Shown in pieces: positions 20 through 18,074 of a DNA stretch of 18,074 nucleotides. Source of the stretch: a virus (taxonomy: Duplodnaviria > Heunggongvirae > Uroviricota > Caudoviricetes); IMG/VR virus record IMGVR_UViG_2648501797_000004; one strand, given 5' to 3'. The notes under the pieces are model-generated. The model did not search any database. It saw only the letters and a program-made list of their open reading frames with translations, and had not been told where the DNA came from. The position numbers were made by a program, and so were the translations under genes. Each line of letters begins with the position of its first letter. Within the stretch, counting starts at the first letter, position 1.

Positions 20-1300
20 TTAATTTTTCATTGCTTCGTTATGGGGCATGGTTGGGGCAAACTCGCTTAACTGTGTATTTAACAAAGCTACCTGTGCATT
101 ATTGTTTTCAGACATCCATTTTCCGTATACCTGAAATACCATTTGCGCATCTGCATGGCCCATCTGGTTTGCTATAAATGCCGGGTTAGCACCAGCTGTC
201 AGCGACCAGCAGGCATAAGTATGTCTCGACTGATATGATTTTCGATGGCGGAGTCCGGCACGTTTTATCGCTGCGTCCCACATCTGCCTTATTGAGTCAA
301 CGGTAAAATGGTCACCATAATTTTTTACTCTCGCTGACACTTCAGGTTGAAAAACAAAGGTGCATTTTTGTTTTTCTGTTCTGCCATACTCTCTGAGGTG
401 AACATCAATGATATGCTCTTTGCTCAGTCTCGTTAATGTCATCTGACTCCGGAGAGCGTCGATTGCTGGCTTAATAAGATGAATGACCCGATTGGTTCCC
501 GCCTGTGTTTTTGGTACCGTGAAACGGTCTTTTGCTAAATTTCTCCTGATCATCATTGTTCCATTTTTCAGATCTATGTCCTCCCATCCAAGTGCACACA
601 GCTCACCAGGGCGAACGCCAGTATAAACAGAAACACACCATAAATTTTTTGCTTGCTGATTTCTGCACGCATCGATAAGACGGATAAATTCCTCCCGCGA
701 AAGAGGATCCGGAATGGTTCTTGATTCCTTTAATGGCGAGATCCCCTTAAACGGATTATCTGCCAGGTAACCGTTATCAACACCAAACTGGAACACGGCG
801 TTAAGATTTGTCATGTAATTATTTACAGTTACAGCCGATCTCCCTGGTTGTGTAACAATATAGTTACTTTTGGGGATCTGGTATCCAGTCAGTAGCTCTT
901 TACGAACCTCCAGTAATTTTTCTTTATTAATCGATGAGGCAAGATTTTTTTCACCGATTATGCTCAGGATATTTTTGATGACGGCACGGTATGTGTTGAG
1001 TGATGTTTTGGCGACTTCAGTTTCTTTCAGTGCCAGAAATTTTTCAGCCAGTTCTTTTATGGTTAAATCTTGTCGGGCCTCACCAAATTTTTCCAGATTG
1101 CGTGAGGAGGGAAACTGTTTTGCATAGTCGAAAACACCAGTTTTTATTGCGTAACAAACAGAGGAGCGTAGTTCACCTGCAACGCGCCTGTTTTTTGCTG
1201 TGTCAGGAACCCCCAGATTTTCCCTGACTCTTACGCCTTTATAAACAAACCAGATACGTAATTTCCCTCCATGGTTTTCCACGCCTGTCGGATATTTCAT
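20..1300 (-). CDS. Tyrosine recombinase / phage integrase (lambda Int-like); ORF is open to 1315 but the ATG at 1300 (MKYPTGV...) has the better SD
   Basis: 431-aa ORF with a C-terminal catalytic region of tyrosine-recombinase type (TGVRPGEL, SRHTYACW, VFQVYGKW matching the R, H-x-x-R and Y positions) and an N-terminal arm-type domain; sits next to an excisionase-like gene. Confidence 0.85.
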   Translation of the reverse strand: MKYPTGVENHGGKLRIWFVYKGVRVRENLGVPDTAKNRRVAGELRSSVCYAIKTGVFDYAKQFPSSRNLEKFGEARQDLTIKELAEKFLALKETEVAKTSLNTYRAVIKNILSIIGEKNLASSINKEKLLEVRKELLTGYQIPKSNYIVTQPGRSAVTVNNYMTNLNAVFQFGVDNGYLADNPFKGISPLKESRTIPDPLSREEFIRLIDACRNQQAKNLWCVSVYTGVRPGELCALGWEDIDLKNGTMMIRRNLAKDRFTVPKTQAGTNRVIHLIKPAIDALRSQMTLTRLSKEHIIDVHLREYGRTEKQKCTFVFQPEVSARVKNYGDHFTVDSIRQMWDAAIKRAGLRHRKSYQSRHTYACWSLTAGANPAFIANQMGHADAQMVFQVYGKWMSENNNAQVALLNTQLSEFAPTMPHNEAMKN

Positions 1301-1334
1301 TTCAACTTCTCTCATTAGTTAGTGTGGCTTTTAG

Positions 1335-1586
1335 TCAAGTAAGATGACGTCTTGGTCTCGCTGATGCCTGGCGCTCAATCCAGCGATCAATTTCTTCCAG
1401 GTTGTAAAAGCATGGACTGTTATCCCATGGCATACCGTCATGAGCGACATGCTTATATTCCCTTCCTTCCATAAACGATTTTTCCCGGGCCTTTTTTAAC
1501 GTACCTTTTTTTATTCCTTTCAGCGCAATTAACTGCTCTTCGGATACCCATTTGCCGGGAGAGACAATCATGATTACTTCGCTCAT
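1335..1586 (-). CDS. Excisionase-like small DNA-binding protein (Xis)
   Basis: 83-aa ORF immediately upstream of int on the same strand; basic; contains a GREY motif like the lambda Xis DGREYLF region. Start codon uncertain (MSEV at 1586 or MIV at 1571). Confidence 0.55.
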   Translation of the reverse strand: MSEVIMIVSPGKWVSEEQLIALKGIKKGTLKKAREKSFMEGREYKHVAHDGMPWDNSPCFYNLEEIDRWIERQASARPRRHLT

Positions 1587-1658
1587 CGATTTCTTTATCT
1601 CTTACATCAGACGAGCGCCGGTTGCAGAATACCAGTCACAACCGGCGACAGTTGAACA

Positions 1659-4130: not shown

Positions 4131-4223
4131 TTTGTTTTAACCTCATGACAGATTTAAGGATGAACAAATCCCTGCCATTGCTGGCATATAAGAATGAAAC
4201 CGGATATTTATTACGGAACTGTT

Positions 4224-4415
4224 TTAAAGACCTGCCGGGATTTCGATATTATCCTGGTGAATAACTTTATCGACCGGGTAACAGTTACCGGGAATTTTCT
4301 GTTCGGTTGCTGCAGTCATACACTCCTGCATTGTCCTGTGAACACTGACTGCAATATCAACTGGCACTCCGGAAACAAGAAAAACTGTCAGAACAAGCGC
4401 AAATGCTGAATTCAT
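4224..4415 (-). CDS. Small hypothetical membrane/secreted protein (63 aa) with hydrophobic N-terminus
   Basis: ATG with AGGA SD; start overlaps the stop of the upstream small ORF in an ATGA arrangement (translational coupling). N-terminal stretch AFALVLTVFLVSGVPVDIAVSV is signal-peptide or TM-like. An alternative plus-strand ORF, 4194..4409, overlaps it. Confidence 0.4.
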   Translation of the reverse strand: MNSAFALVLTVFLVSGVPVDIAVSVHRTMQECMTAATEQKIPGNCYPVDKVIHQDNIEIPAGL

Positions 4416-4600
4416 TGTGCACATCCTTTTGGCATCAGACGTAAACGAGCCAGCATTGAAACAATGCATATTTTATTTAATAGCTCCCGTTCTTGTTTTC
4501 TCTTGTTAATGGCATCTTCAGTAAATACAGGGTTACTGATAGTGACACCAATTTCAAAACAACCTTCAGACGTATTAACGTTTGGTAATAACGTTTTCAT
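4412..4600 (-). CDS. Small hypothetical protein (62 aa), first gene of a coupled pair
   Basis: ATG at complement of 4598-4600 preceded by a GAGGA SD; its stop overlaps the start of the next ORF (ATGA). No recognisable family. Confidence 0.4.
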   Translation of the reverse strand: MKTLLPNVNTSEGCFEIGVTISNPVFTEDAINKRKQERELLNKICIVSMLARLRLMPKGCAQ

Positions 4601-4652
4601 TATCGCGTCCTCAACAATGAATTTTGTGATGCAGTGCCTGGTGCCTCCAGGT

Positions 4653-4679
4653 GACGTTAACCAGTTAACAATTAACGTC
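4653..4679. promoter_or_regulatory. Perfect 8-bp inverted repeat GACGTTAA-N11-TTAACGTC (operator-like) in the divergent intergenic region
   Basis: Palindrome read directly from the sequence; it also contains three TTAAC repeats, and sits between the minus-strand small-gene operon and the plus-strand Q-side genes. Confidence 0.3.
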
Positions 4680-4743
4680 GGATACACTACCTGAGGCTGT
4701 ATCGCGTCGTTCGCTGGGATTACCAGCGGAAAAAATCTGCTCG

Positions 4744-5202
4744 GTGTACCGCGAAAGCGACATCGTACCGGGAGAGCAGACCGCCACCAGCATATTGAAA
4801 CAACGCACAAAAAATCTTGCACCGTTGCCTTACGCCCACCAGCAACAAAAATCACCACAGGAAAAGACGGTGGTAAGCATCACCGTTGATCCAGAGTCTC
4901 CGGAATCTTTCATGAAGCTGCCTAAACGTCGCCGCTGGGTTAAGGAGAAATACACACGTTGGGTTAAGACACAGCCGTGTGCTTGCTGCGGTATGCCAGC
5001 CGACGATCCGCATCATCTGATTGGTCACGGGCAGGGCGGAATGGGAACAAAAGCACATGATCTCTTTGTGTTGCCTTTGTGCAGAAAGCATCACAACGAG
5101 CTGCATACGGATACAGTGGCATTTGAAGATAAGTATGGCTCCCAACTGGAGCTGATATTTCGTTTTATCGATCGCGCGCTGGCAATTGGCGTACTGGCGT
5201 AA
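4744..5202 (+). CDS. Cys/His-rich zinc-binding nuclease-like protein (YbcO/DUF1364- or DUF968-like fold); probable functional start at the ATG at 4912 (96 aa); may be the C-terminal remnant of a longer ydfU-like gene
   Basis: Motif C-x-C-C-G...HHLIGHG...GMGTKAHD...C-x-x-HH-x-E-L-H resembles small phage nin-region nucleases; lies directly upstream of Q. The ORF track start at 4744 is a GTG. Confidence 0.5.
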   Translation: MYRESDIVPGEQTATSILKQRTKNLAPLPYAHQQQKSPQEKTVVSITVDPESPESFMKLPKRRRWVKEKYTRWVKTQPCACCGMPADDPHHLIGHGQGGMGTKAHDLFVLPLCRKHHNELHTDTVAFEDKYGSQLELIFRFIDRALAIGVLA

Positions 5203-5215
5203 GTGGAGAACGAGC

Positions 5216-5968
5216 ATGAACCTTGAAGCCTTACCAAAATATTACTCCCCAAAATCTCCAAAATTGAGCGATGACGCTCCAGCGACAGGCACCGGTTGTT
5301 TAACAATTACGGATGTAATGGCAGCGCAGGGGATGGTGCAGTCGAAAGCACCACTTGGGTTGGCCTTATTTCTGGCAAAAGTTGGTGTTCAGGACCCTCA
5401 GTTTGCGATTGAAGGCCTGCTAAATTACGCGATGGCACTGGATAACCCGACATTGAACAAATTGAGTGAAGAAATCCGGTTACAGATTATTCCTTACCTC
5501 GTGAGTTTTGCCTTTGCTGATTACTCCAGGTCTGCGGCAAGTAAGGCTCGCTGTGAGCATTGTTCAGGTACGGGATTTTATAATGTATTGCGCGAAGTGG
5601 TGAAACACTACAGACGCGGGGAATCTGTAATCAAGGAAGAATGGGTGAAGGAACTATGTCAGCATTGCCATGGTAAGGGCGAAGCCAGCACAGCGTGCAG
5701 AGGGTGTAAGGGTAAAGGGATTGTTCTGGATGAAAAAAGAACCCGGTTTCATGGCGTACCGGTATATAAGATTTGTGGGCGTTGTAATGGAAACCGGTTT
5801 AGTCGTTTACCGACCACGCTGGCACGACGTCATGTCCAGAAGCTGGTACCAGACCTGACCGATTATCAGTGGTATAAGGGGTATGCGGACGTCATTGGTA
5901 AACTGGTAACAAAGTGCTGGCAGGAAGAAGCATACGCGGAAGCGCAATTGAGGAAGGTGACGAGATAA
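5216..5968 (+). CDS. quuQ: Late-gene antitermination protein Q (phage 21/82-type)
   Basis: 250-aa product from an ATG with a GGAGAA SD; Cys-rich zinc-finger region (CEHCSGTG...CQHCHGKG...CRGCKGKG); position immediately upstream of a strong promoter plus terminator and the lysis genes. Confidence 0.8.
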   Translation: MNLEALPKYYSPKSPKLSDDAPATGTGCLTITDVMAAQGMVQSKAPLGLALFLAKVGVQDPQFAIEGLLNYAMALDNPTLNKLSEEIRLQIIPYLVSFAFADYSRSAASKARCEHCSGTGFYNVLREVVKHYRRGESVIKEEWVKELCQHCHGKGEASTACRGCKGKGIVLDEKRTRFHGVPVYKICGRCNGNRFSRLPTTLARRHVQKLVPDLTDYQWYKGYADVIGKLVTKCWQEEAYAEAQLRKVTR

Positions 5969-5999
5969 ATGATTTTTGCTGAAGATGGCGACATGATGT

Positions 6000-6028
6000 T
6001 TGCATTTTTCAAAAAATATGGATAAAAT
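6000..6028 (+). promoter_or_regulatory. Near-consensus sigma70 promoter, candidate late promoter PR' (-35 TTGCAT 6000..6005, 17-bp spacer, -10 TAAAAT 6023..6028)
   Basis: Hexamers and spacing read directly; located about 30 bp downstream of the Q stop and about 45 bp upstream of an intrinsic terminator, as expected for a Q-modified late promoter. Confidence 0.55.
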
Positions 6029-6073
6029 TTTTTCAACGATGGGCTTTGTATACCCGACGTTAAGAAAAAGTAG

Positions 6074-6105
6074 AAAACCCGCTGATGAGCGGGTTTTGTG
6101 CTTTA
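6074..6105 (+). terminator. Intrinsic terminator (tR'-like); also usable on the minus strand
   Basis: 9-bp stem AAAACCCGC / GCGGGTTTT with loop TGATGA, followed by a T-rich tract on the plus strand; the minus strand also has a U-rich tract after the hairpin. Confidence 0.6.
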
Positions 6106-6389
6106 AATGGGGCAATGGTAATGTTGAATCTCATCCCGGGACTCATGTCTGTTAACTTATTATTTAGCTGGTGACTTGGTTATTTGCCTGATGTTTAAAA
6201 TGTTTTCTTCCAGTACAATGTCCCTAAACACAATGAGTCTGCTTATTATATTATTAGCAGAGCTATTACGGCCAAAGTACAGCATAAGCTTTTAAAGCCA
6301 ATCAACCAGTCATCAAGACAGACGGGGTTATTCATAAAAACTCTCCATGTGTGATCCGATGGGGCCTGAAATTAAAGCTTTAATATAGC

Positions 6390-6602
6390 TCATGAAAGGT
6401 AAACATTGGCAGCTGAAGGGCCACGCAGACCATTTATCCGGCAAAATTCCACGCGTAATCCGGTGGTAATTTCTTCTGCATCGCGGAGATTGAGCGCTGA
6501 AACATGAAGCTGGACATCGATACGACCATCGGATGGGGTGATAAGACCCTTGCCGCTTTTGCCGTCAAAGGTTTTGACAATTCCTGTCATTTTACGGGAC
6601 AA
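6390..6602 (-). CDS. cspF: Cold-shock-domain protein, CspF/CspH subfamily
   Basis: 70-aa CspA-family ORF ([12 protein letters not shown]...[10 protein letters not shown]); apparent TTG start with an AAGGAA SD; Qin-like context next to cspB and Q. Confidence 0.8.
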
Positions 6603-6902
6603 AAAAATTCCTTAATACTGATAACTTGGCGCACTATACACACGTTCCTGAAGAAAGCTATAGTTTTTTGATGGGGTTGAAGACGGCTGGATGTCTAAAA
6701 TAAACATTGCTTCATATGTTCAACTATGCGTTAATGATTGCGTCGGTTTGAAGAACAGACGATATACGAAGTAGTTTACTAAAGCAGTTCTCATTTCAGG
6801 TGTTATTCACTTATTCCTTCTTTGAGTCTCTCCAATTAAGTACGAAGTCGTTTCTGTTATGCAAACCATTTATGCCGAAAGGCTCAAGTTAAGGAATGTA
6901 GA

Positions 6903-7118
6903 ATGTCAAATAAAATGACTGGTTTAGTAAAATGGTTTAACGCTGATAAAGGTTTCGGCTTTATTTCTCCTGTTGATGGTAGTAAAGATGTGTTTGTGCA
7001 TTTTTCTGCGATTCAGAATGATAATTATCGAACCTTATTTGAAGGTCAAAAGGTTACCTTCTCTATAGAGAGTGGTGCTAAAGGTCCTGCAGCAGCAAAT
7101 GTCATCATTACTGATTAA
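6903..7118 (+). CDS. cspB: Cold-shock protein CspB
   Basis: 71-aa CspA-family ORF with RNP1/RNP2-like motifs (KGFGFI, VFVHF); long AT-rich leader upstream. Confidence 0.85.
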
Positions 7119-7399
7119 AATTCATCGCTCGTCTGTATACGATAACGAAGAAGGCTGATGCCTGAGTAGAGATACGGACAGAGTAGTGAATATTGGATCT
7201 CTTTAATAAAAAGTAAGGAGGTCCAATACATGAAACAATGGCTAGCATATTTGGCAAAATCTTAATCAGGAAAAGTATGCTAACCATTGTGGTGAAGTGC
7301 AGGTTTGCTGCATGAATAGTTTTACAGCAGAAGCTAACTGCTGGCATGGCAAAACAAAGTGCGTAAGTGGATGACTCCCACAAAAAGCACCACAATCTC

Positions 7400-7426
7400 A
7401 AACCCGCTCAGGCGGGTTTTTTATTA
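7400..7426 (+). terminator. Intrinsic terminator about 290 nt downstream of cspB
   Basis: 8-bp stem AAACCCGC / GCGGGTTT with loop TCAG followed by TTTTATTAT; the stem sequence is nearly identical to the terminator at 6074..6105. Confidence 0.6.
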
Positions 7427-7481
7427 TCTGCTTTAAATATATTATTAAAATATAAAAAATACTTGTTACTAATAAAATCAA

Positions 7482-7652
7482 TCAGGCTACAGCTTTAAGA
7501 TTTGTCTGGAATACTTTGTTGCAATGAGGGCAGATCAAAAGGGCACCTTTTTGTACTCTTGAAAAACTGTGTTCTGACTCTTGGGTGCAGTTTGGGCAGG
7601 AACATTTAACGAGATAATTACGGCGTGATTTTGAGTTTTTACGTTCTGACAT
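7482..7652 (-). CDS. ynfU: Small zinc-ribbon protein (56 aa; CPNC...CPHC), YnfU-like
   Basis: ATG preceded by an AGGAAAA SD; two CxxC pairs; basic N-terminus. The gene symbol is tentative, from recall of Qin small proteins. Confidence 0.5.
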   Translation of the reverse strand: MSERKNSKSRRNYLVKCSCPNCTQESEHSFSRVQKGALLICPHCNKVFQTNLKAVA

Positions 7653-7871
7653 AGGCTTTTCCTGTATAAATGGCCGTATACAGTACACTAAATATGAAAA
7701 CATTTCTCGTATTATTATTTTATATATGACTTTCTTTCAAAATAATTACCCACATTTTTAATGTGTATGTTTTTTTAGCGCCGTTGAGAACAACGTGTGC
7801 TGTCAAAACTACCCCGTAGACTCCGATCTTTTCAAACATATTGCACCATCCGTGTACATCGGGGTGAGGAT

Positions 7872-8087
7872 ATGAAATCAATGGATAAGTTAACAACAGG
7901 TGTTGCCTATGGCACATCGGCGGGTAATGCTGGTTTCTGGGCATTGCAGTTACTCGATAAAGTAACTCCGTCACAGTGGGCTGCAATCGGTGTGCTGGGT
8001 AGCCTGGTTTTTGGCCTGCTGACGTATCTGACAAATCTTTATTTCAAGATTAAAGAAGACAGGCGTAAGGCTGCGAGAGGAGAGTAA
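7872..8087 (+). CDS. essQ: Pinholin, phage 21 S-type with dual start (MKSMDK...)
   Basis: GAGGA SD; dual-start motif M-K-S-M; two TM segments; C-terminus [15 protein letters not shown] like S21. The ORF track begins earlier, at 7797. Confidence 0.85.
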
Positions 8088-8091
8088 TCCA

Positions 8092-8406
8092 ATGACTCAA
8101 GACTATGAACTGGTTGTGAAAGGAGTCCGTAATTTTGAGAATAAAGTTACGGTAACTGTAGCCTTACAGGACAAAGAACGCTTTGACGGTGAAATTTTTG
8201 ACCTGGACATCTCGCTGGACCATGTTGAAGGTGCCGCGCTGGAGTTTTATGAGGCAGCAGCCAGAAGGAGCATCAGACAGGTCTTCCTGGATGTTGCTGC
8301 CGGGTTATGTGAAGGGGACGAGCTGTTGCCAGAAACGCGACCCTGTTCAGAGGCTCGGTATACCATAAAAATTAACAGTTCAGATAACTCGATTACGGGT
8401 TGTTAG
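8092..8406 (+). CDS. ydfR: Prophage protein YdfR (unknown function) inserted between holin and endolysin
   Basis: 104-aa ORF starting 4 nt after the holin stop; identity recalled as Qin YdfR. Confidence 0.6.
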   Translation: MTQDYELVVKGVRNFENKVTVTVALQDKERFDGEIFDLDISLDHVEGAALEFYEAAARRSIRQVFLDVAAGLCEGDELLPETRPCSEARYTIKINSSDNSITGC

Positions 8407-8461
8407 CTTTTTGCAGTTGGCTTTCCAGTATCTTTCATTGGTAGCATCCTGATAAATATCC

Positions 8462-9489
<1,028 letters not shown>

Positions 9490-9852
9490 ATTAATATTAA
9501 ATCGGATTATTTTTAGCGCTGAATGTGAAATTTAAATAAAAAGGACTCTTCCATGAGTCAAAATCCTTGAAATCTTAAGGGTAAGATAAAAGGTCATTAG
9601 ACAGAATGACACGTTTTATTAATAAATAAAGCTATTGTTTCATTCGTGTGTTTTTCTTTACAAAAGTAATCCTTGCTATGGTTGGTTAATCATGCGTTAA
9701 TGGTGTTCTGGTTTGTTACAAAATTATCTGAAGCAGTCATTGTTATAATTTTATTATTTGTACCTCTTGAGATTTCCTTGTTGGTTTTTCTCTCTGATAT
9801 TTTTTTTCGGACCATTCTGCCCAAGGGCTAACTTCTTCAAAAGGTAATAATA

Positions 9853-10065
9853 ATGTCTAACAAAATGACTGGTTTAGTGAAATGGTTTAACCCTGAAAAA
9901 GGTTTTGGTTTCATCACGCCGAAAGATGGTAGCAAAGATGTGTTTGTGCATTTCTCAGCTATTCAGAGCAACGATTTCAAAACGTTAACTGAGAATCAGG
10001 AAGTCGAATTTGGTATTGAGAACGGACCTAAAGGCCCTGCAGCTGTTCATGTAGTGGCACTTTGA
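9853..10065 (+). CDS. cspI: Cold-shock protein CspI
   Basis: 70-aa CspA-family ORF ([34 protein letters not shown]...); long AT-rich leader of about 360 bp upstream. Confidence 0.85.
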
Positions 10066-10267
10066 GGTAGAAAATATTACAAACCATATTCACTTTAGAT
10101 GCCCGTGTTGCCATGGTTCTCAGTATAGAACATCATCTTTTGATGTTTCTGACAGAAATCCTTTCGGGGCAAAATGTATCTTTTGTAAATCAATGATGAT
10201 TACATTTGATAATATTTCACAATACTTAAATGTTAGCCATCTGTCGTTAGATTTAAGAAAGTGAAAA

Positions 10268-10293
10268 TGAAGGCTCCTTCGGGAGCTTTTTTG
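10268..10293 (+). terminator. Intrinsic terminator (GGCTCC-TTCG-GGAGC followed by TTTTTT) about 205 nt downstream of cspI
   Basis: Hairpin with a UUCG tetraloop and a 6-T tract read directly from the sequence. Confidence 0.5.
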
Positions 10294-10335
10294 CTTAGTG
10301 TCTAGTCGATGGATACTCACATATTACGGTAACAT

Positions 10336-10566
10336 ATGAAAAAAATAATAGTTTTTTTTAACTCTGAACCAGCAATGGTAGTGCCAGTGATGACCGGAGT
10401 TAACACCATCATGCGTGAATACCCAAATGGCGAAACAACACACCTCACTGTAATGGCTGCAGGGTTTCCATCTCTGACCGGAGATCATAAAGTCATTTAT
10501 GTAGCAGCGGATCGACATGTAACTTCAGAAGAAATTCTGGAAGCAGCAATGAGACTCTTGAATTGA
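10336..10566 (+). CDS. ynfN: Small hypothetical protein, possibly YnfN-like; an internal ATG at 10411 would give a 51-aa product
   Basis: ORF between cspI and gnsB; weak SD at both candidate starts; the assignment is by position and recalled length only. Confidence 0.4.
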   Translation: MKKIIVFFNSEPAMVVPVMTGVNTIMREYPNGETTHLTVMAAGFPSLTGDHKVIYVAADRHVTSEEILEAAMRLLN

Positions 10567-10735
10567 TTTGATTCTAATGCATTGATAATAAATGATAATC
10601 ATCTTTATCTGTTTGTGTGAAATTTAGACCGTCGTATGTTGATTATTGCGATGTTTCATCTTATCTTTTATACGTTTGCTCCATATAATTGACACTACTG
10701 TGTACCAAGAAAGTCATAACAGACTAAAAGAGGAA

Positions 10736-10912
10736 ATGATGAACATTGAAGAGTTAAAAACAAAAACAGAAGCAGATATTTCTGAATATATAACAAAAAA
10801 AATCATTGAGCTTAAGAAAAAGACCGGGAAAGAAGTTACCAGTATCCAGTTTACTGCACGGGAAAAAATGACTGGTCTTGAAAGCTATGATATCAAGATT
10901 GATTTAATCTAG
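10736..10912 (+). CDS. gnsB: GnsA/GnsB-family small protein
   Basis: 58-aa product MMNIEELKTKTEADISEYITKK... after an AAAAGAGGAAA SD; TATAAT and TTGACA hexamers lie upstream at 10684..10695. Confidence 0.7.
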   Translation: MMNIEELKTKTEADISEYITKKIIELKKKTGKEVTSIQFTAREKMTGLESYDIKIDLI

Positions 10913-11207
10913 TATGTTTATAGTATTAGCATCAATTTCTCATCAGATGCTATTCAACAATACAAATTACCCATAAACCTCGTTTTTACGGGGTTTTGTT
11001 ATATTTAAACATTACCGAATAGATATAAATCTCGATTGTCGATGGTATTGGTTGTGTGACAATACCTAGTCTTTCCGGTATGCCTGAAGAGAATACAAAC
11101 GACAGATTATGTAAGGGAAACGCGCTGAAACTTTCACTCTTTCATGCTGAGTGATTTGACGTTATATTTTTAGCCGCAAGTGAAGAGCAAACGAATGGAG
11201 CGACAAA

Positions 11208-11414
11208 ATGCATAAAGATCAATACATTGATGCCCCCTCCCAGGAGCAGGTTCGTGTAAAAACTATGCTTAATAGCACCATTTCGATGGGTTACCCGGAT
11301 GTTGTAATTGCATGTATAGAACATCAAGTATCTCTGGAAGCATTCAGGGCAATTGAGGCCGCGTTAGTAAAGCACGATAAGAATACGAAGGATTATTCCC
11401 TGGTGGTTGACTGA
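11208..11414 (+). CDS. Hypothetical small prophage protein (68 aa)
   Basis: ATG with GGAG SD 8 nt upstream; no recognisable motif. By position it could correspond to the small genes found between lysis genes and cos in lambdoid prophages. Confidence 0.4.
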
Positions 11415-11664
11415 TCACCATAACTGCTAACCATTCTGACCATTTCACAAGTGACAGAGTCAATATCGTATTCTGTCACTGTCAGGCTAATACAGTACTG
11501 CAATTCAACTACAGCAATGCCTCGTATTTAGGTGAATTTACAATATCGTTCTATTCGGATACCAACTACATTTCTGAAGATAAGGCATTTATGGCTCACA
11601 TATTGGTCCCTCACGCTCGCCAGTTCTGTGCGGGGAGGGAGGGAAGGTCAAGAAACCGGGATGT

Positions 11665-11859
11665 TCATCCATCATCACTCTGGATTGATGTATATGCTCT
11701 CTTTTCTGACGTTAGTCTCCGGCGGCAGGCTTCAATGACCCAGGCTGAGAAATTCCCGGACCCTTTTTGATCAAGAGCGATGTTAATTTGTTCAATCATT
11801 TGGTTAGGAAAGCGGATGTTGCGGGTTGTTGTTCTGCGGGTTCTGTTCTTCGTTGACAT
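11665..11859 (-). CDS. Small basic DNA-binding protein, YlcI/YnfO-like (DUF3950-type, possible ribbon-helix-helix)
   Basis: 64-aa ORF with an Arg/Thr-rich N-terminus followed by IRFPNQMIEQINIALDQKGSGNFSAWVIEACRRRL; AGGG SD; located just upstream of cos, as ylcI is in DLP12. Confidence 0.55.
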   Translation of the reverse strand: MSTKNRTRRTTTRNIRFPNQMIEQINIALDQKGSGNFSAWVIEACRRRLTSEKRAYTSIQSDDG

Positions 11860-12029
11860 GAGGTTGCCCTGTATTCAGTGTCGCTGATTTGTATTGTCTG
11901 AAGTTGTTTTTACGTTAAGTTGATGCAGATCAATTAATACGATACCTGCGTCATAATTGATTATTTGACGTGGTTTGATGGCGTAGATGCACGTTGTGAC
12001 ATGTAGATGATAATTATTATCATTTTGCG

Positions 12030-12240
12030 GGTCCTTTCCGGCGATCCGACAGGTTACGGGGCGGCGACCTCGCGGGTTTTCGCTATTTATGAAAATTTTC
12101 CGGTTTAAGGCATTTCCGTTCTTCTTCGTCGTAACTTAATGTTTTTATTTAAAATACCCCCTGAAAAGAAAGGAAACGACAGGTGCTGAAAACGAGCTTT
12201 TGGGCCTCTGTCGTTTCCTTTCTCTGTTTTTGGCCGTGGA
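12030..12240 (+). other. Lambda-type cohesive end site cos (cosQ-cosN-cosB); cosN 12-nt overhang GGGCGGCGACCT at 12058..12069
   Basis: Recognised by near-identity to the lambda genome ends (...GATCCGACAGGTTACG / GGGCGGCGACCTCGCGGGTTTTCGCTATTTATGAAAATTTTCCGGTTTAAGG...), followed by the Nu1 leader. Confidence 0.8.
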
Positions 12241-12247
12241 ATGAACA

Positions 12248-12793
12248 ATGGAAGTCAACAAAAAGCAGCTGGCTGACATTTTCGGTGCGAGTATCCGTAC
12301 CATTCAGAACTGGCAGGAACAGGGAATGCCCGTTCTGCGAGGCGGTGGCAAGGGTAATGAGGTGCTTTATGACTCTGCCGCCGTTATAAGATGGTATGCC
12401 GAAAGGGATGCTGAAATTGAGAACGAAAAGCTGCGCCGGGAAGTTGAAGAACTGCGGCAGGCCAGCGAGACAGATCTCCAGCCAGGGACTATTGAGTACG
12501 AACGCCATCGACTTACGCGTGCGCAGGCCGACGCACAGGAGCTGAAAAATGCCAGAGACTCCACTGAAGTGGTGGAAACCGCATTCTGTACTTTCGTGCT
12601 GTCGCGGATCGCAGGTGAAATTGCCAGTATTCTCGACGGGATCCCCCTGTCGGTGCAGCGGCGTTTTCCGGAACTGGAAAACCGACATGTTGATTTCCTG
12701 AAACGGGATATCATCAAAGCCATGAACAAAGCAGCCGCGCTGGATGAACTGATACCGGGGTTGCTGAGTGAATATATCGAACAGTCAGGTTAA
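12248..12793 (+). CDS. nohA: Terminase small subunit Nu1
   Basis: 181-aa product near-identical (from recall) to lambda gpNu1 (MEVNKKQLADIFGASIRTIQNWQEQGMPVLRGGGKGNEVLYDSAAV...); overlaps the downstream A ORF by 26 nt as in lambda. Confidence 0.9.
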   Translation: MEVNKKQLADIFGASIRTIQNWQEQGMPVLRGGGKGNEVLYDSAAVIRWYAERDAEIENEKLRREVEELRQASETDLQPGTIEYERHRLTRAQADAQELKNARDSTEVVETAFCTFVLSRIAGEIASILDGIPLSVQRRFPELENRHVDFLKRDIIKAMNKAAALDELIPGLLSEYIEQSG

Positions 12794-14192
12794 CAGGCTG
12801 CGGCATTTTGTCCGCGCCGGGCTTCGCTCACTGTTCAGGCCGGAGCCACAGACCGCCGTTGAATGGGCGGATGCTAATTACTATCTCCCGAAAGAATCCG
12901 CATACCAGGAAGGGCGCTGGGAAACACTGCCCTTTCAGCGGGCCATCATGAATGCGATGGGCAGCGACTACATCCGTGAGGTGAATGTGGTGAAGTCTGC
13001 CCGTGTCGGTTATTCCAAAATGCTGCTGGGTGTTTATGCCTACTTCATAGAGCATAAGCAGCGCAACACCCTTATCTGGTTGCCGACGGATGGTGATGCC
13101 GAGAACTTTATGAAAACCCACGTTGAGCCGACTATTCGTGATATTCCGTCGCTGCTGGCGCTGGCCCCGTGGTATGGCAAAAAGCACCGGGATAACACGC
13201 TCACCATGAAGCGTTTCACTAATGGGCGTGGCTTCTGGTGCCTGGGCGGTAAAGCGGCAAAAAACTACCGTGAAAAGTCGGTGGATGTGGCGGGTTATGA
13301 TGAACTTGCTGCTTTTGATGATGATATTGAACAGGAAGGCTCTCCGACGTTCCTGGGTGACAAGCGTATTGAAGGCTCGGTCTGGCCAAAGTCCATCCGT
13401 GGCTCCACGCCCAAAGTGAGAGGCACCTGTCAGATTGAGCGTGCAGCCAGTGAATCCCCGCATTTTATGCGTTTTCATGTTGCCTGCCCGCACTGCGGGG
13501 AGGAGCAGTACCTTAAATTTGGCGATAAAGAGACGCCGTTTGGCCTCAAATGGACGCCGGATGATCCCTCCAGCGTGTTTTATCTCTGCGAACATAATGC
13601 CTGCGTCATCCGCCAGCAGGAGCTGGACTTCACTGATGCCCGTTATATCTGCGAAAAGACCGGGATCTGGACCCGTGATGGCATTCTCTGGTTTTCGTCA
13701 TCCGGTGAAGAGATTGAACCGCCTGACAGCGTGACCTTTCACATCTGGACGGCGTACAGCCCGTTCACCACCTGGGTGCAGATTGTCAAAGACTGGATGA
13801 AAACGAAAGGGGATACCCATAGTTTAAGTGGCAGCACGAATGCAGCTGGTAATCACAGCCATAGAGATGGCCGTCGATTTAACCCCAGTGTTTTTAAAGA
13901 TACTTATCAATATGGTTATACAAGCTCAGGTCAAAATACCTGGGGTGTACAAGGCTCAGTAGGTATGTCTACGGGGTGGTTAGCTAATACCAGTACAGAT
14001 GGTAATCATAGCCACTCACTGTCCGGCACAGCAGCATCTGCAGGTGCACACGCGCATACTGTCGGTATTGGTGCTCATACGCACTCCGTTGCGATTGGTT
14101 CACATGGACACACCATCACCGTTAACGCTGCTGGTAACGCGGAAAACACCGTCAAAAACATCGCATTTAACTATATTGTGAGGCTTGCATAA
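12768..14192 (+). pseudogene. stfQ: In-frame deletion fusion: terminase large subunit gpA N-terminal ~350 aa (12768..13817) joined to the C-terminal ~124 aa of a side tail fibre protein (13818..14192)
   Basis: Lambda gpA-like sequence runs through ...WVQIVKDWMKTKGDT, then switches abruptly to a His-rich tail-fibre C-terminus (GNHSH, HSHSLSG, HAHTVGIGAHTHSVAIGSHGHTITV ... [11 protein letters not shown]); all head and tail genes are absent. Confidence 0.8.
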
Positions 14193-14767
14193 TGGCATTC
14201 AGAATGAGTGAACAACCACGGACCATAAAAATTTATAATCTGCTGGCCGGAACTAATGAATTTATTGGTGAAGGTGATGCATATATTCCGCCTCATACAG
14301 GTCTGCCAGCAAACAGTACCGATATTGCACCGCCAGATATTCCGGCAGGCTTCGTGGCTGTTTTCAACAGTGATGAGTCATCGTGGCATCTCGTTGAAGA
14401 TCATCGGGGTAAAACGGTTTATGACGTGGCTTCCGGCGACGCGTTATTTATTTCTGAACTCGGTCCGTTACCGGAAAATGTTACCTGGTTATCGCCGGAA
14501 GGAGAGTTTCAGAAGTGGAACGGCACAGCCTGGGTGAAGGATACGGAAGCAGAAAAACTGTTCCGGATCCGGGAGGCGGAAGAAATAAAAAACAACCTGA
14601 TGCAGGTAGCCAGTGAGCATATTGCGCCGCTTCAGGATGCTGCAGATCTGGAAATTGCAACGGAGGAAGAAATCTCGTTGCTGGAAGCATGGAAAAAGTA
14701 TCGGGTATTGCTGAACCGTGTTGATACGTCAACTTCACAGGATATTGAATGGCCAGCACTGCCGTAG
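14192..14767 (+). CDS. tfaQ: Tail fibre assembly protein (Tfa)
   Basis: 191-aa ORF whose start overlaps the stop of the fibre fragment (TAATG); Tfa-like sequence and position after stf. Confidence 0.8.
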
Positions 14768-14864
14768 GGTAAAACATATAAATTCTATAATTAGATGTAT
14801 CTTTCCATTTACGGCAAGGAAGGGGGCTTGGAAGACGTAAAGCATCTCACACCGAGATTATTTT

Positions 14865-15455
14865 TTATATGTCAGGTGTCTGAAGTTTTGCTTTGGCTCT
14901 TAAAATGGTTTGCCGCGAGGTTTTGAATTCCCGGGCAATGGCACTTATACTTACACCTGACTTAATTCGTTCGAATACCACCTGTTTCTGTTCTTCATTT
15001 AACACAGGTGGTCGACCAAAACGTTTCCCTGCGCCGCGGGCTCTTACTATCCCGGAATGAGTGCGTTCAAGTAAAAGGTCTCGTTCAAATTCAGCGACTG
15101 CTGAAATTACTTGCATCATCATTTTTCCTGTTGGACTGGTCAGGTCAATGCCCCCCAATGCTAAGCAATGCACTCTGATACCTGTTTCGGTCAGTTGTTC
15201 CACTGTTTTCCTGATATCCATTGCATTACAACCAAGGCGATCCAGTTTTGTCACAATCAATTGATCACCACATTTCAGGCGAGCAAGCAACCGGTTAAAA
15301 CCAGGACGCTCACTGGTTGCTGCTGAGCCGCTAATGTGTTCTTCGATTATTTGCTGAGGTTTGATTTTAAAACCTGCACTTTCGATTTCCCGGCGTTGAT
15401 TTTCGGTGGTCTGATCCAGCGTTGATATCCGACAGTAAGCAAAAATTTGAGACAT
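14865..15455 (-). CDS. pinQ: Serine recombinase / DNA invertase of the Pin/Gin/Hin family
   Basis: 196-aa product with the N-terminal resolvase catalytic motif ([10 protein letters not shown]) and a C-terminal HTH ([17 protein letters not shown]). Confidence 0.9.
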
Positions 15456-15771
15456 AGTGAGACTCTATACGAAATTGGTGTTCATATCATAATGCATCTC
15501 AGAAAATAATTATGATTATTTTTGTGCATATTTGTATGTACACGTTCGAAAATAAACGAATGCGTATGCAACCCCGTAATTTTGGTGAGACCCAAAATCG
15601 ATTTTGTGAAAAATGGCTTTAACTCGGTTTGTTTTTCGAGTTCCGGGCGGACTCAAGGAAGAAGAATAGTGTTGCGTGTTATTTTAACCAGATTTCAAGT
15701 TGTTTGGTCGTGGAAAAGAGGAGCAAAATGTTGTTAAAGTGGAAAAATGATAAAAAAGTAAGTTTATTATA

Positions 15772-16005
15772 TTACATTTTACCATTTAAATTTTGGTTGT
15801 CTTTAAGAACTGATATCGCTGTTTGTAATAATTCTTTGTTATCCAGCCATGATTTTTTCTTTATGTTTCCTTCAATGTAATCAAGCAATGTTCTGGTATT
15901 GATAGGTCTTCCCTGTTTTGCTACTTCCACTACAGCATCCCCTAGGATAATTCTTACTTCAGGAAGCTGCGCAGGGAACCACTTTAGGGTGTCTTTTGAT
16001 TTCAT
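15772..16005 (-). CDS. ydfK: Small prophage protein YdfK (YnaE paralogue, described as cold-shock inducible)
   Basis: 77-aa product MKSKDTLKWFPAQLPEVRIILGDAVVEVAKQG... from an ATG with an AAGGAA SD; the ORF track extends 11 codons further upstream. Confidence 0.75.
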   Translation of the reverse strand: MKSKDTLKWFPAQLPEVRIILGDAVVEVAKQGRPINTRTLLDYIEGNIKKKSWLDNKELLQTAISVLKDNQNLNGKM

Positions 16006-16790
16006 GAAGATATTCCTTAAAATATTATTGATTTTCATTGCGATATTGTATGTCTGATTCAGGATATGTTGACTTATACATCGGTTTTGTCTGGGTTATT
16101 GGATATGCCAATCCCTAATTTTATTAGGGCATGACTAAAAATGCTGAATATGATAAGGAGAGATGTGATTATCAGTATGCTGTTCATATAGCCTCGAATT
16201 AGTAATGTGTTATATATGATATAGTTGACAATTTTTATCTTGGGTGTTCTTAAAGTTCGTAGATAAACATTGTCGTTTCAGGTATACAGGAATGCTAACA
16301 GGTGGCAGCAAAAATCAGGCGGTTTATGGCGCAAGCTGAAGCGGCAACTGCAAACTATCTTATGCAGAGACTCTACACGGATTGGGTTTAAAAGTATACA
16401 TAGATAACAGTTTTTATCTGAAAAAGAAAAATATCAAGGTGATATAGCCTATATGCCTTTGATGCGGAGGAATGAATGTGATGGGAGTGATGTATCTGAA
16501 TAGTTGAAAAACCGCAGACACGCCTTATGCAAGAAGGTGCTGCGGTTGGCTGGTAAATTTTTCGATAGTGTGAGTATTGAATGATTTCCAGCCGTTCTTG
16601 ATTTTACGCATAAATCCATGAAAAAACTACTTATCTGTTGGGGAGTTTTTTTGGGGCATATATGGGACAGAAATAGGCCCCAGATAGACACAGAGATCGA
16701 ACTTAGGATGCTTTTTAAAAAATGCAACTATCTGAAAAAACCTAGAAAACGCCAAGGAAACCACAGGATGGGAAAAAACACCTGTGAATT

Positions 16791-18074
16791 ATGGATTTCC
16801 AGTTATATTCGCTCGGCGCAGCGTTAGTGTTTCATGAAATATTTTTTCCTGAATCATCAACGGCAATGGCGTTAATTCTGGCAATGGGAACCTACGGTGC
16901 AGGTTATGTGGCGCGTATTGTCGGAGCATTTATTTTCGGCAAAATGGGCGACAGAATAGGGCGTAAAAAAGTGCTCTTTATTACCATCACCATGATGGGG
17001 ATCTGTACCACCTTAATTGGTGTGTTACCGACCTATGCACAGATTGGTGTTTTTGCCCCCATCTTGCTGGTGACGCTGCGTATTATTCAGGGATTGGGTG
17101 CAGGTGCGGAAATTTCCGGTGCCGGTACGATGCTGGCGGAATATGCGCCAAAAGGTAAGCGCGGAATTATCTCCTCATTTGTGGCTATGGGAACTAACTG
17201 CGGAACTTTAAGCGCAACGGCAATCTGGGCCTTTATGTTCTTCATTCTCAGTAAAGAGGAACTGCTGGCGTGGGGATGGCGTATACCGTTCCTGGCGAGC
17301 GTTGTCGTGATGGTCTTTGCTATCTGGTTGCGTATGAATCTGAAAGAAAGCCCGGTTTTTGAGAAGGTTAACGACAGCAACCAACCGACAGCAAAACCTG
17401 CACCTGCTGGTAGCATGTTCCAGAGCAAATCCTTCTGGCTGGCAACAGGGCTGCGTTTTGGTCAGGCGGGTAACTCAGGTTTAATTCAGACTTTCCTTGC
17501 GGGCTATTTAGTGCAGACGTTATTGTTTAACAAAGCAATTCCAACAGATGCATTGATGATCAGTTCGATTCTCGGCTTTATGACCATTCCGTTCCTTGGT
17601 TGGTTATCCGATAAAATTGGTCGCCGGATCCCGTATATTATTATGAATACCTCCGCGATTGTGCTGGCATGGCCAATGCTTTCTATCATCGTAGATAAAA
17701 GCTATGCCCCGAGCACCATTATGGTTGCACTGATTGTGATTCATAACTGTGCGGTGCTGGGATTATTTGCTCTGGAAAATATTACCATGGCAGAAATGTT
17801 CGGCTGTAAAAACCGCTTTACCCGGATGGCTATTTCTAAAGAAATTGGTGGTCTTATCGCTTCCGGTTTTGGTCCTATCCTGGCGGGTATTTTCTGCACC
17901 ATGACGGAATCCTGGTATCCGATCGCCATTATGATCATGGCATATTCAGTGATTGGTTTAATCTCTGCGCTGAAAATGCCAGAAGTGAAAGACCGTGATT
18001 TAAGTGCGCTGGAAGACGCCGCGGAAGATCAACCGCGTGTTGTAAGAGCTGCGCAACCTTCCAGAAGTCTGTAA
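16791..18074 (+). CDS. ydfJ: MFS metabolite:H+ symporter-family transporter (ProP/ShiA-like), 5'-truncated by the prophage insertion
   Basis: 12-TM-type hydrophobic ORF with MFS motif A (GKMGDRIGRKKVL). The ORF begins inside the conserved EWFDF-type motif of TM1 (MDFQLYSLG...), with a stop codon 2 codons upstream, so the N-terminus is missing. Confidence 0.8.
   Translation: MDFQLYSLGAALVFHEIFFPESSTAMALILAMGTYGAGYVARIVGAFIFGKMGDRIGRKKVLFITITMMGICTTLIGVLPTYAQIGVFAPILLVTLRIIQGLGAGAEISGAGTMLAEYAPKGKRGIISSFVAMGTNCGTLSATAIWAFMFFILSKEELLAWGWRIPFLASVVVMVFAIWLRMNLKESPVFEKVNDSNQPTAKPAPAGSMFQSKSFWLATGLRFGQAGNSGLIQTFLAGYLVQTLLFNKAIPTDALMISSILGFMTIPFLGWLSDKIGRRIPYIIMNTSAIVLAWPMLSIIVDKSYAPSTIMVALIVIHNCAVLGLFALENITMAEMFGCKNRFTRMAISKEIGGLIASGFGPILAGIFCTMTESWYPIAIMIMAYSVIGLISALKMPEVKDRDLSALEDAAEDQPRVVRAAQPSRSL

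Follow-up and report, generated by a model that had tools for sequence, protein, structure and literature searches.

A Qin-type lambdoid prophage remnant with intact cos and nohA, most probably a young product of two deletions

Cryptic prophages of the Qin type that carry nohA and cos have long been catalogued in E. coli. In the founding Qin paper, Espion and colleagues (1983, on lambda qin111) reportedly found that the Q-S-R-cos region of Qin functions in lambda hybrids. Our own full-text literature search on Qin, nohA, and cos returned nothing relevant. Helper mobilization of defective lambdoid prophages is also documented, and those of O157 Sakai were excised, packaged via a co-resident terminase, and transferred (Asadulghani et al. 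2009, PMC2669165). Satellites typically lack holin, endolysin, spanin, and tail-fiber-assembly genes, and the PICI criteria applied below were taken from the same source (PMC10085698). EcCICFT073 and other E. coli cos-type PICIs carry their own cosB, and their Rpp forms a heterocomplex with the helper TerS and thereby retargets it; the cosB of EcCICFT073 is unlike that of the helper and depends on Rpp (Fillol-Salom et al. 2019, PMC6739421). The PICMI of Vibrio have a core of int, alpA, and primase, rolling-circle replication, and headful packaging (PMC10803314).

The DNA analyzed here, referred to as the window, is a stretch of 18,074 nucleotides with 100% identity to the locus from rspB to ydfJ in strain Ecol_AZ147 (AZ147). 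It most probably represents a lambdoid prophage of the Qin/PhiR42_1 type that inserted into ydfJ at its 5′ end and, not long ago, suffered two deletions. When the RefSeq annotation of AZ147 (dicB, ydfD, ydfT, cspF/B/I, essQ, rrrQ, rzpQ, gnsB, nohA, tfaQ, pinQ, and ydfK) was compared with the "cryptic prophage Qin" of K-12, gene content and gene order were those of the Qin family, and each window gene matched an annotated gene at 98% identity or more. The element also occupies the Qin site, where it lies between rspB and ydfJ and interrupts the 5′ end of ydfJ: the N-terminal 28 codons of that gene adjoin rspB, while the remainder begins at the attR core. The attR core TTATGGATTTCCAG (positions 16789–16802, plus strand) overlaps the start codon of the present ydfJ ORF (16791–18074), and the attL core TTATGGATTTCAAG lies 16–29 nt to the left of window base 1; both were located by direct repeat and flank alignment. 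The distance from core to core is 16,817 bp, in agreement with the roughly 17 kb of the initial annotation, which had rightly considered a 17-kb monomer too small for a lambda head. Joining the P arm of attR to the P′ arm of attL gives the attP of PhiR42_1, with the arms matching at 396/400 and 399/400, and the reconstructed empty attB was uninterrupted in 2010 of 5426 complete genomes (37%). No tRNA genes were found in the window when a tRNA attachment site was sought, and an Rfam scan recovered two cspA thermoregulators and IS009, with no further families.

The int and xis genes, described at the outset as retained, are both intact, as indicated by their Pfam domains and near-identity to PhiR42_1. 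The tyrosine integrase (20–1315, minus strand; a 431-aa ORF, 426 aa in RefSeq; Pfam Arm-DNA-bind_2 and Phage_integrase) is 99.3–99.8% identical at the amino acid level to those of phages HannyBb, PhiR42_1, mEp460, and Tritos, and its identity to that of a deposited phage suggests that Int is active. The excisionase gene xis (1335–1586, minus strand; Pfam DUF1233 putative excisionase, E = 1.6e-31) has the same nucleotide sequence as PhiR42_1 xis. It is followed by a full-length exonuclease of 823 aa (1659–4130, minus strand; Pfam Rv2179c-like 3′-5′ exonuclease domain and annotation), whose counterpart in K-12 Qin is the pseudogene ydfE. The nonsynonymous differences from PhiR42_1 amount to one in int (next to three synonymous ones), zero in xis, and three in the exonuclease gene. 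Next come ydfD (4224–4415) and dicB (4412–4600), both on the minus strand and assigned from the RefSeq annotation of the 100%-identical AZ147 locus and from PHROG matches, and a truncated ydfU (4681–5202) directly before the late antiterminator Q (ydfT/quuQ; 5216–5968, plus strand; Pfam Antiterm and DUF968, annotation). The lysis cassette (7872–9489, plus strand) comprises the holin essQ, ydfR, the endolysin rrrQ, and the spanin rzpQ (PHROG holin, endolysin, and Rz-like spanin; annotation). The tail fiber assembly protein gene tfaQ (14192–14767, plus strand; Pfam Caudo_TAP) and the serine invertase gene pinQ (14865–15455, minus strand; Pfam Resolvase and HTH_7) are likewise present. A promoter scan of the window stayed at background (18 found, 19.6 expected), and terminator-like sites were enriched (17 found, 7.0 expected).

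The full-length phage PhiR42_1 (PV340562; 48.7 kb) contains the same modules plus cI/cro/cII/O, A through J, stf, and tfa. Its GenBank record, a complete phage genome with a propagation host, suggests that it is viable; a full-text literature search on the PhiR phage names retrieved no paper describing PhiR42_1. The identity between window and phage was, in order, 99.7% (int to exo), 99.5% (Q to holin), 91% (lysis to gnsB), 98.3% (cos to A), and 98.6% (stf to att). The window was colinear with the phage save for two clean gaps, one of 10.5 kb with a junction overlap of 7 nt and one of 20.7 kb with a junction overlap of 4 nt. In the BLAST comparison, window positions 1–4686 corresponded to phage positions 1046–5730 and window positions 4680–8297 to phage positions 16277–19894, which places the 7-nt overlap of the first junction at 4680–4686. 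This first deletion took PhiR42_1 bases 5731–16276 (10.5 kb) with the immunity and replication genes, namely dicF, ydfABC, dicA/cI, dicC/cro, cII, O, relBE, hokD, rem, and the 5′ part of ydfU, and the leftward early promoter/regulatory region was deleted as well. No replication, regulator, or capsid genes were found among the annotated or predicted ORFs of the window (RefSeq, Pfam, PHROG). Since the element has no origin, replicase, repressor/derepression switch, or capsid-size determinant, and since its leftward early promoter region is deleted, it could not have a satellite life cycle on its own.

The description of the element as carrying a complete lambda-type cos site and a full Nu1 was confirmed, at positions 12029–12793. 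All parts of such a site lie upstream of Nu1: cosQ, cosN with its 12-nt cohesive end, and cosB with R3, an IHF site, R2, and R1. The cosQ sequence GGGTCCT (12029–12035, plus strand), read directly from the sequence, is identical in lambda and PhiR42_1; the heptamer is presumably cosQ, corresponding to lambda bp 48473–48479. The 12-nt cohesive-end sequence of cosN, GGGCGGCGACCT (12059–12070, plus strand), is an exact match with a single occurrence in the window, and it aligns with the "cos site" annotated in phage DE3. By alignment, cosB extends over about 12109–12223 (plus strand), with R3 at 12109–12124, the IHF-site region, R2 at 12167–12182, and R1 at 12208–12223, with R2 and R1 in the expected inverted-repeat arrangement. 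Across the interval from cosQ up to the start codon of Nu1, about nine positions differ from lambda and none from PhiR42_1, and the six differences from lambda within the cosB stretch are all common to PhiR42_1 and K-12 Qin. The nohA gene (12248–12793, plus strand) encodes the full-length small terminase subunit Nu1 of 181 aa (Pfam Phage_Nu1, E = 4.9e-101), with four substitutions relative to lambda and one relative to PhiR42_1 (A106T; 99.4% identity). Both cos and Nu1 are sequence-equivalent to those of the deposited phage PhiR42_1. As judged from identities of 98–100%, this similarity is homology and no chance motif match, and cos and Nu1 would almost certainly still be recognizable and cleavable by a lambda-type terminase.

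The large terminase subunit is truncated, as the initial annotation had noted. An in-frame fusion ORF (12768–14192, plus strand) joins gpA residues 1–350 to Stf residues 901–1025: it is amino-acid identical to lambda gpA over residues 1–350 and then continues as the C-terminus of the side tail fiber. The Nu1-binding N-terminus and the ATPase domain are kept, with only about 40 of 294 nuclease-domain profile positions. The gpA part showed no nonsynonymous differences and 13 synonymous ones relative to lambda or 10 relative to PhiR11_1. The second deletion, whose junction at 13813–13816 is the 4-nt microhomology ATAC, took PhiR42_1 bases 25257–45925 (20.7 kb), comprising the rest of A through W, B, C/Nu3, D, E, FI, FII, Z-J, lom, and most of stf. 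The element had been said to lack all head and tail genes; this is true of the head and tail shaft genes, but tfaQ and 124 stf codons are present. A Pin-mediated inversion or deletion was rejected as the origin of the A::stf junction, since no inverted crossover sites flank it and both junctions show plain 4–7-nt microhomology; the tfaQ-pinQ gap of only 98 nt was also counted against it. The breakpoint in A is common to two Qin alleles, and both fusions are in frame, a coincidence that pure chance explains only moderately well.

Among the 5426 complete genomes, the A::stf junction was found in five, plus one partial match, whereas the deletion 1 junction and the exact element were each found in only one. 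The exact architecture is almost strain-specific. The three inspected among the four other A::stf carriers had the same locus and the same flanking host alleles; they had lost int-xis-exo-Q to IS1 composites and had further IS3/IS1 hits, with cos-nohA kept. This distribution, an indirect population signal, points to vertical descent of the element with no sign of horizontal spread. Lambda-type cos/Nu1/A sequences were present in 5125 of the 5426 genomes. The AZ147 genome has a lambda-type terminase locus in one place only and, with no second one, has no resident helper.

The simple decay of a lambda-like prophage, which the initial annotation had named as an alternative, is the reading that the data bear out, with a Qin-family element colinear with PhiR42_1 apart from two illegitimate deletions. 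An illegitimate, microhomology-mediated deletion would have removed the immunity and replication region, and a second such deletion, from A codon 351 to Stf codon 900, would have removed all head and tail genes at once. On the prophage map, cos and Nu1 lie immediately upstream of A; they would have survived because the second deletion has its left endpoint within A, and would have stayed intact because the time since then has been too short for point mutations to build up. Other lambdoid remnants (K-12 Qin, ABW_A32, L009, and L010) are independent precedents, in which different microhomology deletions likewise happen to have spared cos-Nu1. The intactness of cos and Nu1 thus very probably reflects youth and a deletion endpoint, not selection. 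That int, xis, att, cos, and Nu1 are all intact in a remnant can be accounted for by youth alone, and consequently their intactness, without a regulator and a replicase, is not evidence for a satellite lifestyle. The element may erode further, as in the sister strains, may give segments to superinfecting lambdoid phages by homologous recombination along the classical lambda-qin route, or may, at most, undergo rare helper-complemented excision and packaging.

Together, int, xis, both att arms, cos, and Nu1 are exactly what helper-assisted mobilization would need, and transfer is possible. A helper-dependent, satellite-like mobilizable element would rely on a superinfecting phage of the PhiR42_1/mEp460 type for Int/Xis of matching specificity, for the same Q, and for a lambda-type terminase; it would be excised, multimerized by recombination, packaged via its own cos, either as a trimer or joined to the helper in a cointegrate, and delivered to a strain with an empty ydfJ site. 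We consider this unlikely as an account of the element. Its int, xis, and att arms are 99–100% identical to those of the deposited phage and its cos is the same, and three copies (3 × 16,817 = 50,451 bp, or 1.04 lambda lengths) would fit a lambda head, but with no origin or replicase, concatemers could arise only via rare recombination, and the element has lost its early leftward promoter and regulatory sequences. The frequency of empty attB sites (37% of complete genomes) and of lambda-type cos/Nu1/A, and thus of potential helpers, would favor spread, yet the exact element was seen in a single genome, always with one locus and one host background, and that genome has no helper of its own. The three inspected carriers that had lost int and xis but kept cos-nohA indicate that cos retention is not coupled to mobility. 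Precedents exist in the O157 Sakai prophages, transferred with co-resident help (PMC2669165), and in PICMI satellites, packaged as concatemers in full-size heads (PMC10803314). However, given several kilobases at 99.5% identity to the likely helper, recombinational marker rescue would be far likelier than intact transfer.

The remnant could instead be a domesticated anti-phage or packaging-interference module, with a late operon turned on by the Q of a superinfecting lambdoid phage, a proposal to which we give very little credence. The gpA(1–350)::Stf fusion, which would bind Nu1 but has neither the nuclease part nor the portal-binding part, could poison the helper terminase; the chromosomal cos could serve as a decoy, and its cleavage could lead to abortive chromosome cutting. 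The domains kept in the fusion (the Nu1-binding N-terminus and the complete ATPase domain, with only the first approximately 40 of 294 nuclease profile positions) fit such a role, as does its position in the late operon behind Q with intervening terminator-like sites, by which its expression would be Q-conditional. The comparisons gave no evidence of selection: the absence of nonsynonymous changes in gpA was scored against functional phages and reflects the history before the deletion. Two independent allele types carry the fusion in frame and without interruption, but an in-frame fusion would arise twice by chance in about 1 of 9 cases, the A::stf junction is very rare (5/5426 genomes), and A is deleted entirely in K-12 Qin and other remnants. 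Several independent lambdoid remnants, named above, keep cos-Nu1, although this sample was chosen by the presence of cos-Nu1 and, being so conditioned, cannot show its enrichment. That the cos-nohA-A′ block of Qin-type remnants was kept for function of either kind, as a helper-mobility handle or as a Q-triggered interference module, seems to us quite improbable. If it were true, selection would have left its signatures in the recurrent survival of cos-Nu1 beside independent deletions and in the in-frame breakpoint that two alleles share at A codon 350, and E. coli would have an inexpensive and common means by which chromosomal islands could be moved or defended. The remnant could then be moved into the 37% of strains with an empty ydfJ site, or the fusion and the decoy cos would protect the host from lambda-type phages.

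The proposal that the element is a PICI-like cos satellite was not supported, as it has only two of the five PICI core components, keeps a lysis cassette, and carries the cosB and TerS of the phage itself. The two components (criteria of PMC10085698) are the integrase, identified by Pfam and by near-identical phage integrases, and the small terminase, which is a bona fide phage Nu1 one residue off that of PhiR42_1. A regulation module (AlpA, MerR, or Stl homologue) was absent from the RefSeq annotation and the Pfam/PHROG matches of the window, as were, by annotation, Pfam, and PHROG, a primase-replicase module, the phage O-gene region lying inside the first deletion, and genes for capsid morphogenesis or packaging redirection (cpm, ppi, and Rpp). 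Structural and lysis genes other than those expected of a PICI were found, namely holin, endolysin, spanin, Tfa, and the Stf fragment.

The element resembles cos-type PICIs such as EcCICFT073 in being chromosomal, in having an integrase, and in a lambda-like cosQ/cosN packageable by a lambda/phi80-type terminase. While EcCICFT073-type PICIs have their own cosB and Rpp, the window has the phage's own cosB and TerS and no Rpp-like gene, and while PICIs have a regulator, a primase-replicase, and a capsid-morphogenesis gene but no lysis genes, the window shows the reverse. Like PICMI (PMC10803314), the element is small, lacks capsid-remodelling genes, and could fill a full-size head only as a multimer, but alpA, primase, rolling-circle replication, and headful packaging are absent from it. 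From the int/alpA/primase core, only int is present, and the integration site is ydfJ rather than next to fis. A TerS-based analogy with PICMI was dropped because TerS is not part of that core (PMC10803314). The Sakai prophages (PMC2669165) are similar in that they have head and packaging defects, keep int and cos, and have a near-identical cos used by a co-resident terminase. The mobile ones, however, either carry out their own replication or owe their amplification to regional replication from a neighboring prophage, whereas this 16.8-kb element has lost its replication region, and the Sakai pool has co-resident helpers, whereas AZ147, the sole matching complete genome, has no helper with a lambda-type terminase.

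K-12 Qin (Kim) shares the chromosomal site in the rspB/ydfJ interval and the gene order dicB, ydfD, ydfU, ydfT, cspF, cspB, essQ, ydfR, rrrQ, rzpQ, cspI, ynfN, gnsB, ynfO, cos, nohA, stf′, tfaQ, pinQ, ydfK, and ynfT. It has the same cosB variant, it matches the window at 99.4% identity from cos through the whole of nohA, and DNA identity was 97.9–99.4% across the common cos-nohA and stf′-tfaQ segments. In K-12 Qin, intQ is truncated, an IS2 remnant is present, and ydfE is a pseudogene, whereas int, xis, and exo are intact in the window; conversely, dicA/dicC/relBE/hokD/rem are present in K-12 Qin and deleted in the window. The morphogenesis deletion of K-12 Qin runs from the last five Nu1 codons into stf, leaving a 320-aa StfQ, while that of the window runs from about A codon 350 to about Stf codon 901. 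PhiR42_1 and its relatives with the same integrase (mEp460, HannyBb, and Tritos) are full-length "live Qin" phages. Relative to PhiR42_1, the window lacks 31 kb (immunity/replication and about A codon 351 to about Stf codon 900) and differs in a small segment at 11050–11696, but the two have an identical cos, Nu1 and Int that are each one amino acid apart, and the same attP core and arms. PhiR42_1 is an almost exact "before" picture of Qin, against which both deletions can be mapped to the nucleotide.

The flagged region was confirmed to be what the initial annotation had described, namely a complete lambda-type cos site and a retained Nu1 small subunit next to a truncated large subunit. The heptamer GGGTCCT, which we take to be cosQ from its identity in lambda, was read from the sequence at 12029-12035, and was followed by cosN with the 12-nt cohesive-end sequence GGGCGGCGACCT (12059-12070) and three Nu1-binding R elements (12109-12124, 12167-12182, and 12208-12223), of which R2 and R1 form an inverted repeat as expected for lambda-type cosB. 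Over the stretch running from cosQ up to the Nu1 start codon, the window equals PhiR42_1, a deposited phage used as the full-length reference, at each base, and the six differences from lambda in cosB are all common to PhiR42_1 and the K-12 prophage Qin. The full-length Nu1 (nohA) ORF at 12248-12793 (Pfam Phage_Nu1, E 5e-101) has four residue differences from lambda Nu1 and a single one, A106T, from PhiR42_1 Nu1. The large-terminase ORF (12768-14192) is identical in amino acids to lambda gpA at residues 1-350, with 13 synonymous and 0 nonsynonymous codon differences from lambda and 10 and 0 from PhiR11_1, and then continues in a different sequence; it contains the complete ATPase domain but covers the nuclease-domain profile over only about 40 of its 294 positions (Pfam). 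Within this block, cos-Nu1 is closer to PhiR42_1, and A is closer to lambda and PhiR11_1. The genes int and xis were both found intact (Pfam), as had been claimed. Annotation, ORF, and PHROG searches found no head or tail-shaft genes in the window, and to that extent the claimed loss of head and tail genes stands, but tfaQ and 124 stf codons remain.

A whole-window megablast against 5426 complete E. coli genomes gave a 100% match in strain Ecol_AZ147, at the locus between rspB and ydfJ. Comparison with this locus located a 103-bp tandem duplication disrupting dicB (window 4471-4573), an IS3 insertion in ydfJ (17909-17914), three point differences, and nothing else. AZ147 is the sole complete-genome match, and the window source is a very close relative of it from outside the genome collection. 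Since the annotation of the AZ147 locus is the Qin gene list (ydfD, dicB, ydfU', ydfT, cspF, cspB, essQ, ydfR, rrrQ, rzpQ, cspI, ynfN, gnsB, ynfO-like, nohA, tfaQ, pinQ, ydfK, and ynfT), and the corresponding interval in the K-12 MG1655 record is labelled 'cryptic prophage Qin', the window is a Qin variant, Qin being a defective lambdoid prophage reportedly on record since 1983. Neither the type of feature nor its naming is new; the Nu1 homologue has the existing gene name nohA.

The 16,817-bp element is bounded by a 14-bp direct repeat, with the attL core TTATGGATTTCAAG lying 16-29 nt left of window base 1 and the attR core TTATGGATTTCCAG at 16789-16802; the att arms are identical to PhiR42_1 attP at 396/400 and 399/400 positions. 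Integration split ydfJ after codon 28, so that the N-terminal 28 codons adjoin rspB (in the 90 nt preceding window base 1; 5890-5985 of the AZ147 locus) and the remainder begins at the attR core (window 16791-18074). When the flanks were joined in silico, the empty-site sequence was uninterrupted in 2010 of the 5426 genomes (37%), which validates the att prediction and shows that the ydfJ site is polymorphic. The remaining ydfJ ORF comprises 427 codons with its start ATG inside the att core, and a truncated YdfJ transporter may therefore still be produced.

Four deposited phages, HannyBb, PhiR42_1, mEp460, and Tritos, have integrases that match the window integrase at 99.3-99.8% identity. In gene content, PhiR42_1 (PV340562, 48.7 kb) is a complete, collinear 'live Qin', containing int, xis, exo, ydfD, ydfCBA, cI(dicA), cro(dicC), cII, O, flxA, relBE, hokD, rem, ydfU, Q, cspF/B, S, ydfR, R, Rz, cspI, ynfN, gnsB, ynfO, cos, Nu1, A, W, B, C, D, E, FI, FII, Z-J, lom, stf, tfa, and pinQ. 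Our literature search found no paper describing this phage. Its 'host-like' cargo (relBE, hokD, rem, flxA, cspB/F/I, gnsB, and ydfK-like genes) means that these K-12 'cryptic prophage' genes are also carried by a deposited phage genome of full length.

The window aligned collinearly to PhiR42_1 with two clean gaps: 1-4686 to 1046-5730 (99.7% identity), 4680-8297 to 16277-19894 (99.5%), 8452-11049 to 19987-22545 (91%), 11697-13816 to 23137-25256 (98.3%), and 13813-16555 to 45926-48668 (98.6%). Window 8298-11696 is mosaic relative to the phage, and 11050-11696 is unrelated to it, with a 68-aa phrog_657/YbcW-like gene (11208-11414) replacing the ydfO/ybcV-type gene. Rfam matched two thermoregulator leaders of the cspA type, one ahead of cspB and extending into it (6742-7134) and one placed likewise at cspI (9706-10111), and the candidate sRNA IS009 in the 3' part of tfaQ (14535-14733). 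Deletion 1 (10.5 kb, 7-nt overlap at the junction) removed the immunity and replication region. It starts 86 nt upstream of dicB, which is intact (4412-4686 region), and takes dicF and the dicA/dicC control region, hence the dicB operon promoter; the cell-division inhibitor DicB is probably silent rather than derepressed. Deletion 2 (20.7 kb) joined ...AAAGGGGATAC in A to CCATAGTTTAAG... in stf via the microhomology ATAC, producing the in-frame fusion gpA(1-350)::Stf(901-1025). A single illegitimate recombination event thus took all head and tail genes, and the survival of cos and Nu1 is sufficiently explained by their position just upstream of the left breakpoint. Relative to PhiR42_1, int, xis, and exo have 1, 0, and 3 nonsynonymous codon differences, respectively. 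Because cos, Nu1, gpA 1-350, int, xis, exo, and the att arms match or nearly match phage sequences, the remnant has acquired practically no mutations that are specific to it after belonging to a working phage. Such intactness is predicted by a young deletion and is uninformative on selection for a satellite lifestyle.

Among the 5426 complete genomes, the deletion-1 junction was present in AZ147 only and the deletion-2 junction in five, with one additional partial match. Of the other four deletion-2 carriers, three (22F46, B18271, and 23CRST022) were inspected. In each of them the remnant occupies the same locus, the flanking host protein alleles and the NohA protein are the same, and IS1 composites stand in place of int-xis-exo-dicB-Q; B18271 had additional IS3 and IS1 insertions. 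The inspected carriers represent vertical inheritance with ongoing erosion, and since cos-nohA persists where the mobility genes are lost, its persistence is uncoupled from mobility. The IS1-bounded block replacing int-to-Q in the sister strains (L006 6634-14048, L012 6634-14048, and L011 11257-11954) contains genes for a BCCT transporter and a DUF2254 protein together with a copy of corA, and is an example of IS1-mediated cargo exchange inside a prophage remnant.

The Qin allele of strain ABW_A32 has a left breakpoint identical to that of the window, after gpA codon 350 (...GGGGATAC; window 13790-13830, ABW_A32 locus 22464-24269). The right partner of this breakpoint is Stf codon 901 in the window and codon 775 in ABW_A32, with both fusions in frame, and the A' alleles differ at 24 codons (20 synonymous, 4 nonsynonymous). 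This breakpoint could be a hot spot, or could go back to a single event that a second deletion and gene conversion later modified. In K-12 Qin (L003) and two remnants at other loci (L009 4701-4760 and L010 4701-4760), the morphogenesis deletions have their left endpoints in the last ~40 nt of Nu1 (window-equivalent 12754-12776); the endpoints of these three independent remnants lie at most ~25 nt apart, in the final Nu1 codons, with cos and nearly all of Nu1 kept. On the other side of the junctions stand stf, J, and another tail-fibre gene, and microhomology of 2-4 nt was seen wherever the partner was identified; the junction partner sequence of the L010 breakpoint was looked for and not found. 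The shared A and Nu1 breakpoints may hint at hot spots or selection, a question beyond the reach of this sample, which was conditioned on cos-Nu1 presence.

Occasional helper-assisted transfer of the remnant is possible; a superinfecting phage of the PhiR42_1/mEp460 type would provide matching Int/Xis, Q, and terminase. Lambda-type cos/Nu1/A sequences were matched in 5125 of 5426 genomes, and the ydfJ site is empty in 37%. Recombinational rescue of segments into the helper, favoured by kilobases at 99.5% identity, is likelier. A search of the AZ147 genome matched one place, giving no second lambda-type terminase locus as a potential resident helper. Asadulghani et al. described defective lambdoid prophages without head or packaging functions that were excised, packaged, and transferred, with packaging through near-identical cos by another prophage's terminase (PMC2669165), and transfer of the remnant, if true, would be an instance of this known phenomenon.

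The leftward early promoter region falls within deletion 1, so Int/Xis would need to be supplied by a helper with matching specificity. The excised 16.8-kb circle, lacking both an origin and a replicase, has no means of forming the concatemers needed for cos packaging. Lambda packages roughly 75-105% of its genome length, and the monomer, dimer, and trimer correspond to 0.35, 0.69, and 1.04 lambda lengths, so that of these only the trimer would fit; the remark that a monomer of ~17 kb is too small for a lambda head was correct (16,817 bp). With its two deletions relative to PhiR42_1, the element is very probably best explained by decay of a lambda-like prophage, which had been offered as the fallback. 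The PICI-like cos satellite initially suggested as a speculation is not supported, given three absent PICI core components, the presence of lysis genes, and a cosB and TerS that are the phage's own. PICIs share an integrase, a regulator (AlpA/MerR/Stl), a primase-replicase, a capsid-morphogenesis gene, and a small terminase, typically without other structural or lysis genes (PMC10085698). The window element encodes the integrase together with a small terminase of the phage type, whereas annotation, Pfam, and PHROG revealed no regulator, primase-replicase, or capsid-morphogenesis gene in it, and it encodes holin, endolysin, spanin, Tfa, and an Stf fragment. Of the int, alpA, and primase required of PICMIs (PMC10803314), it has int only. 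E. coli cos-PICIs such as EcCICFT073 combine lambda-like cosQ/cosN with their own cosB, and Rpp retargets the helper TerS (PMC6739421), whereas both cosB and TerS of the window element are those of the phage itself.
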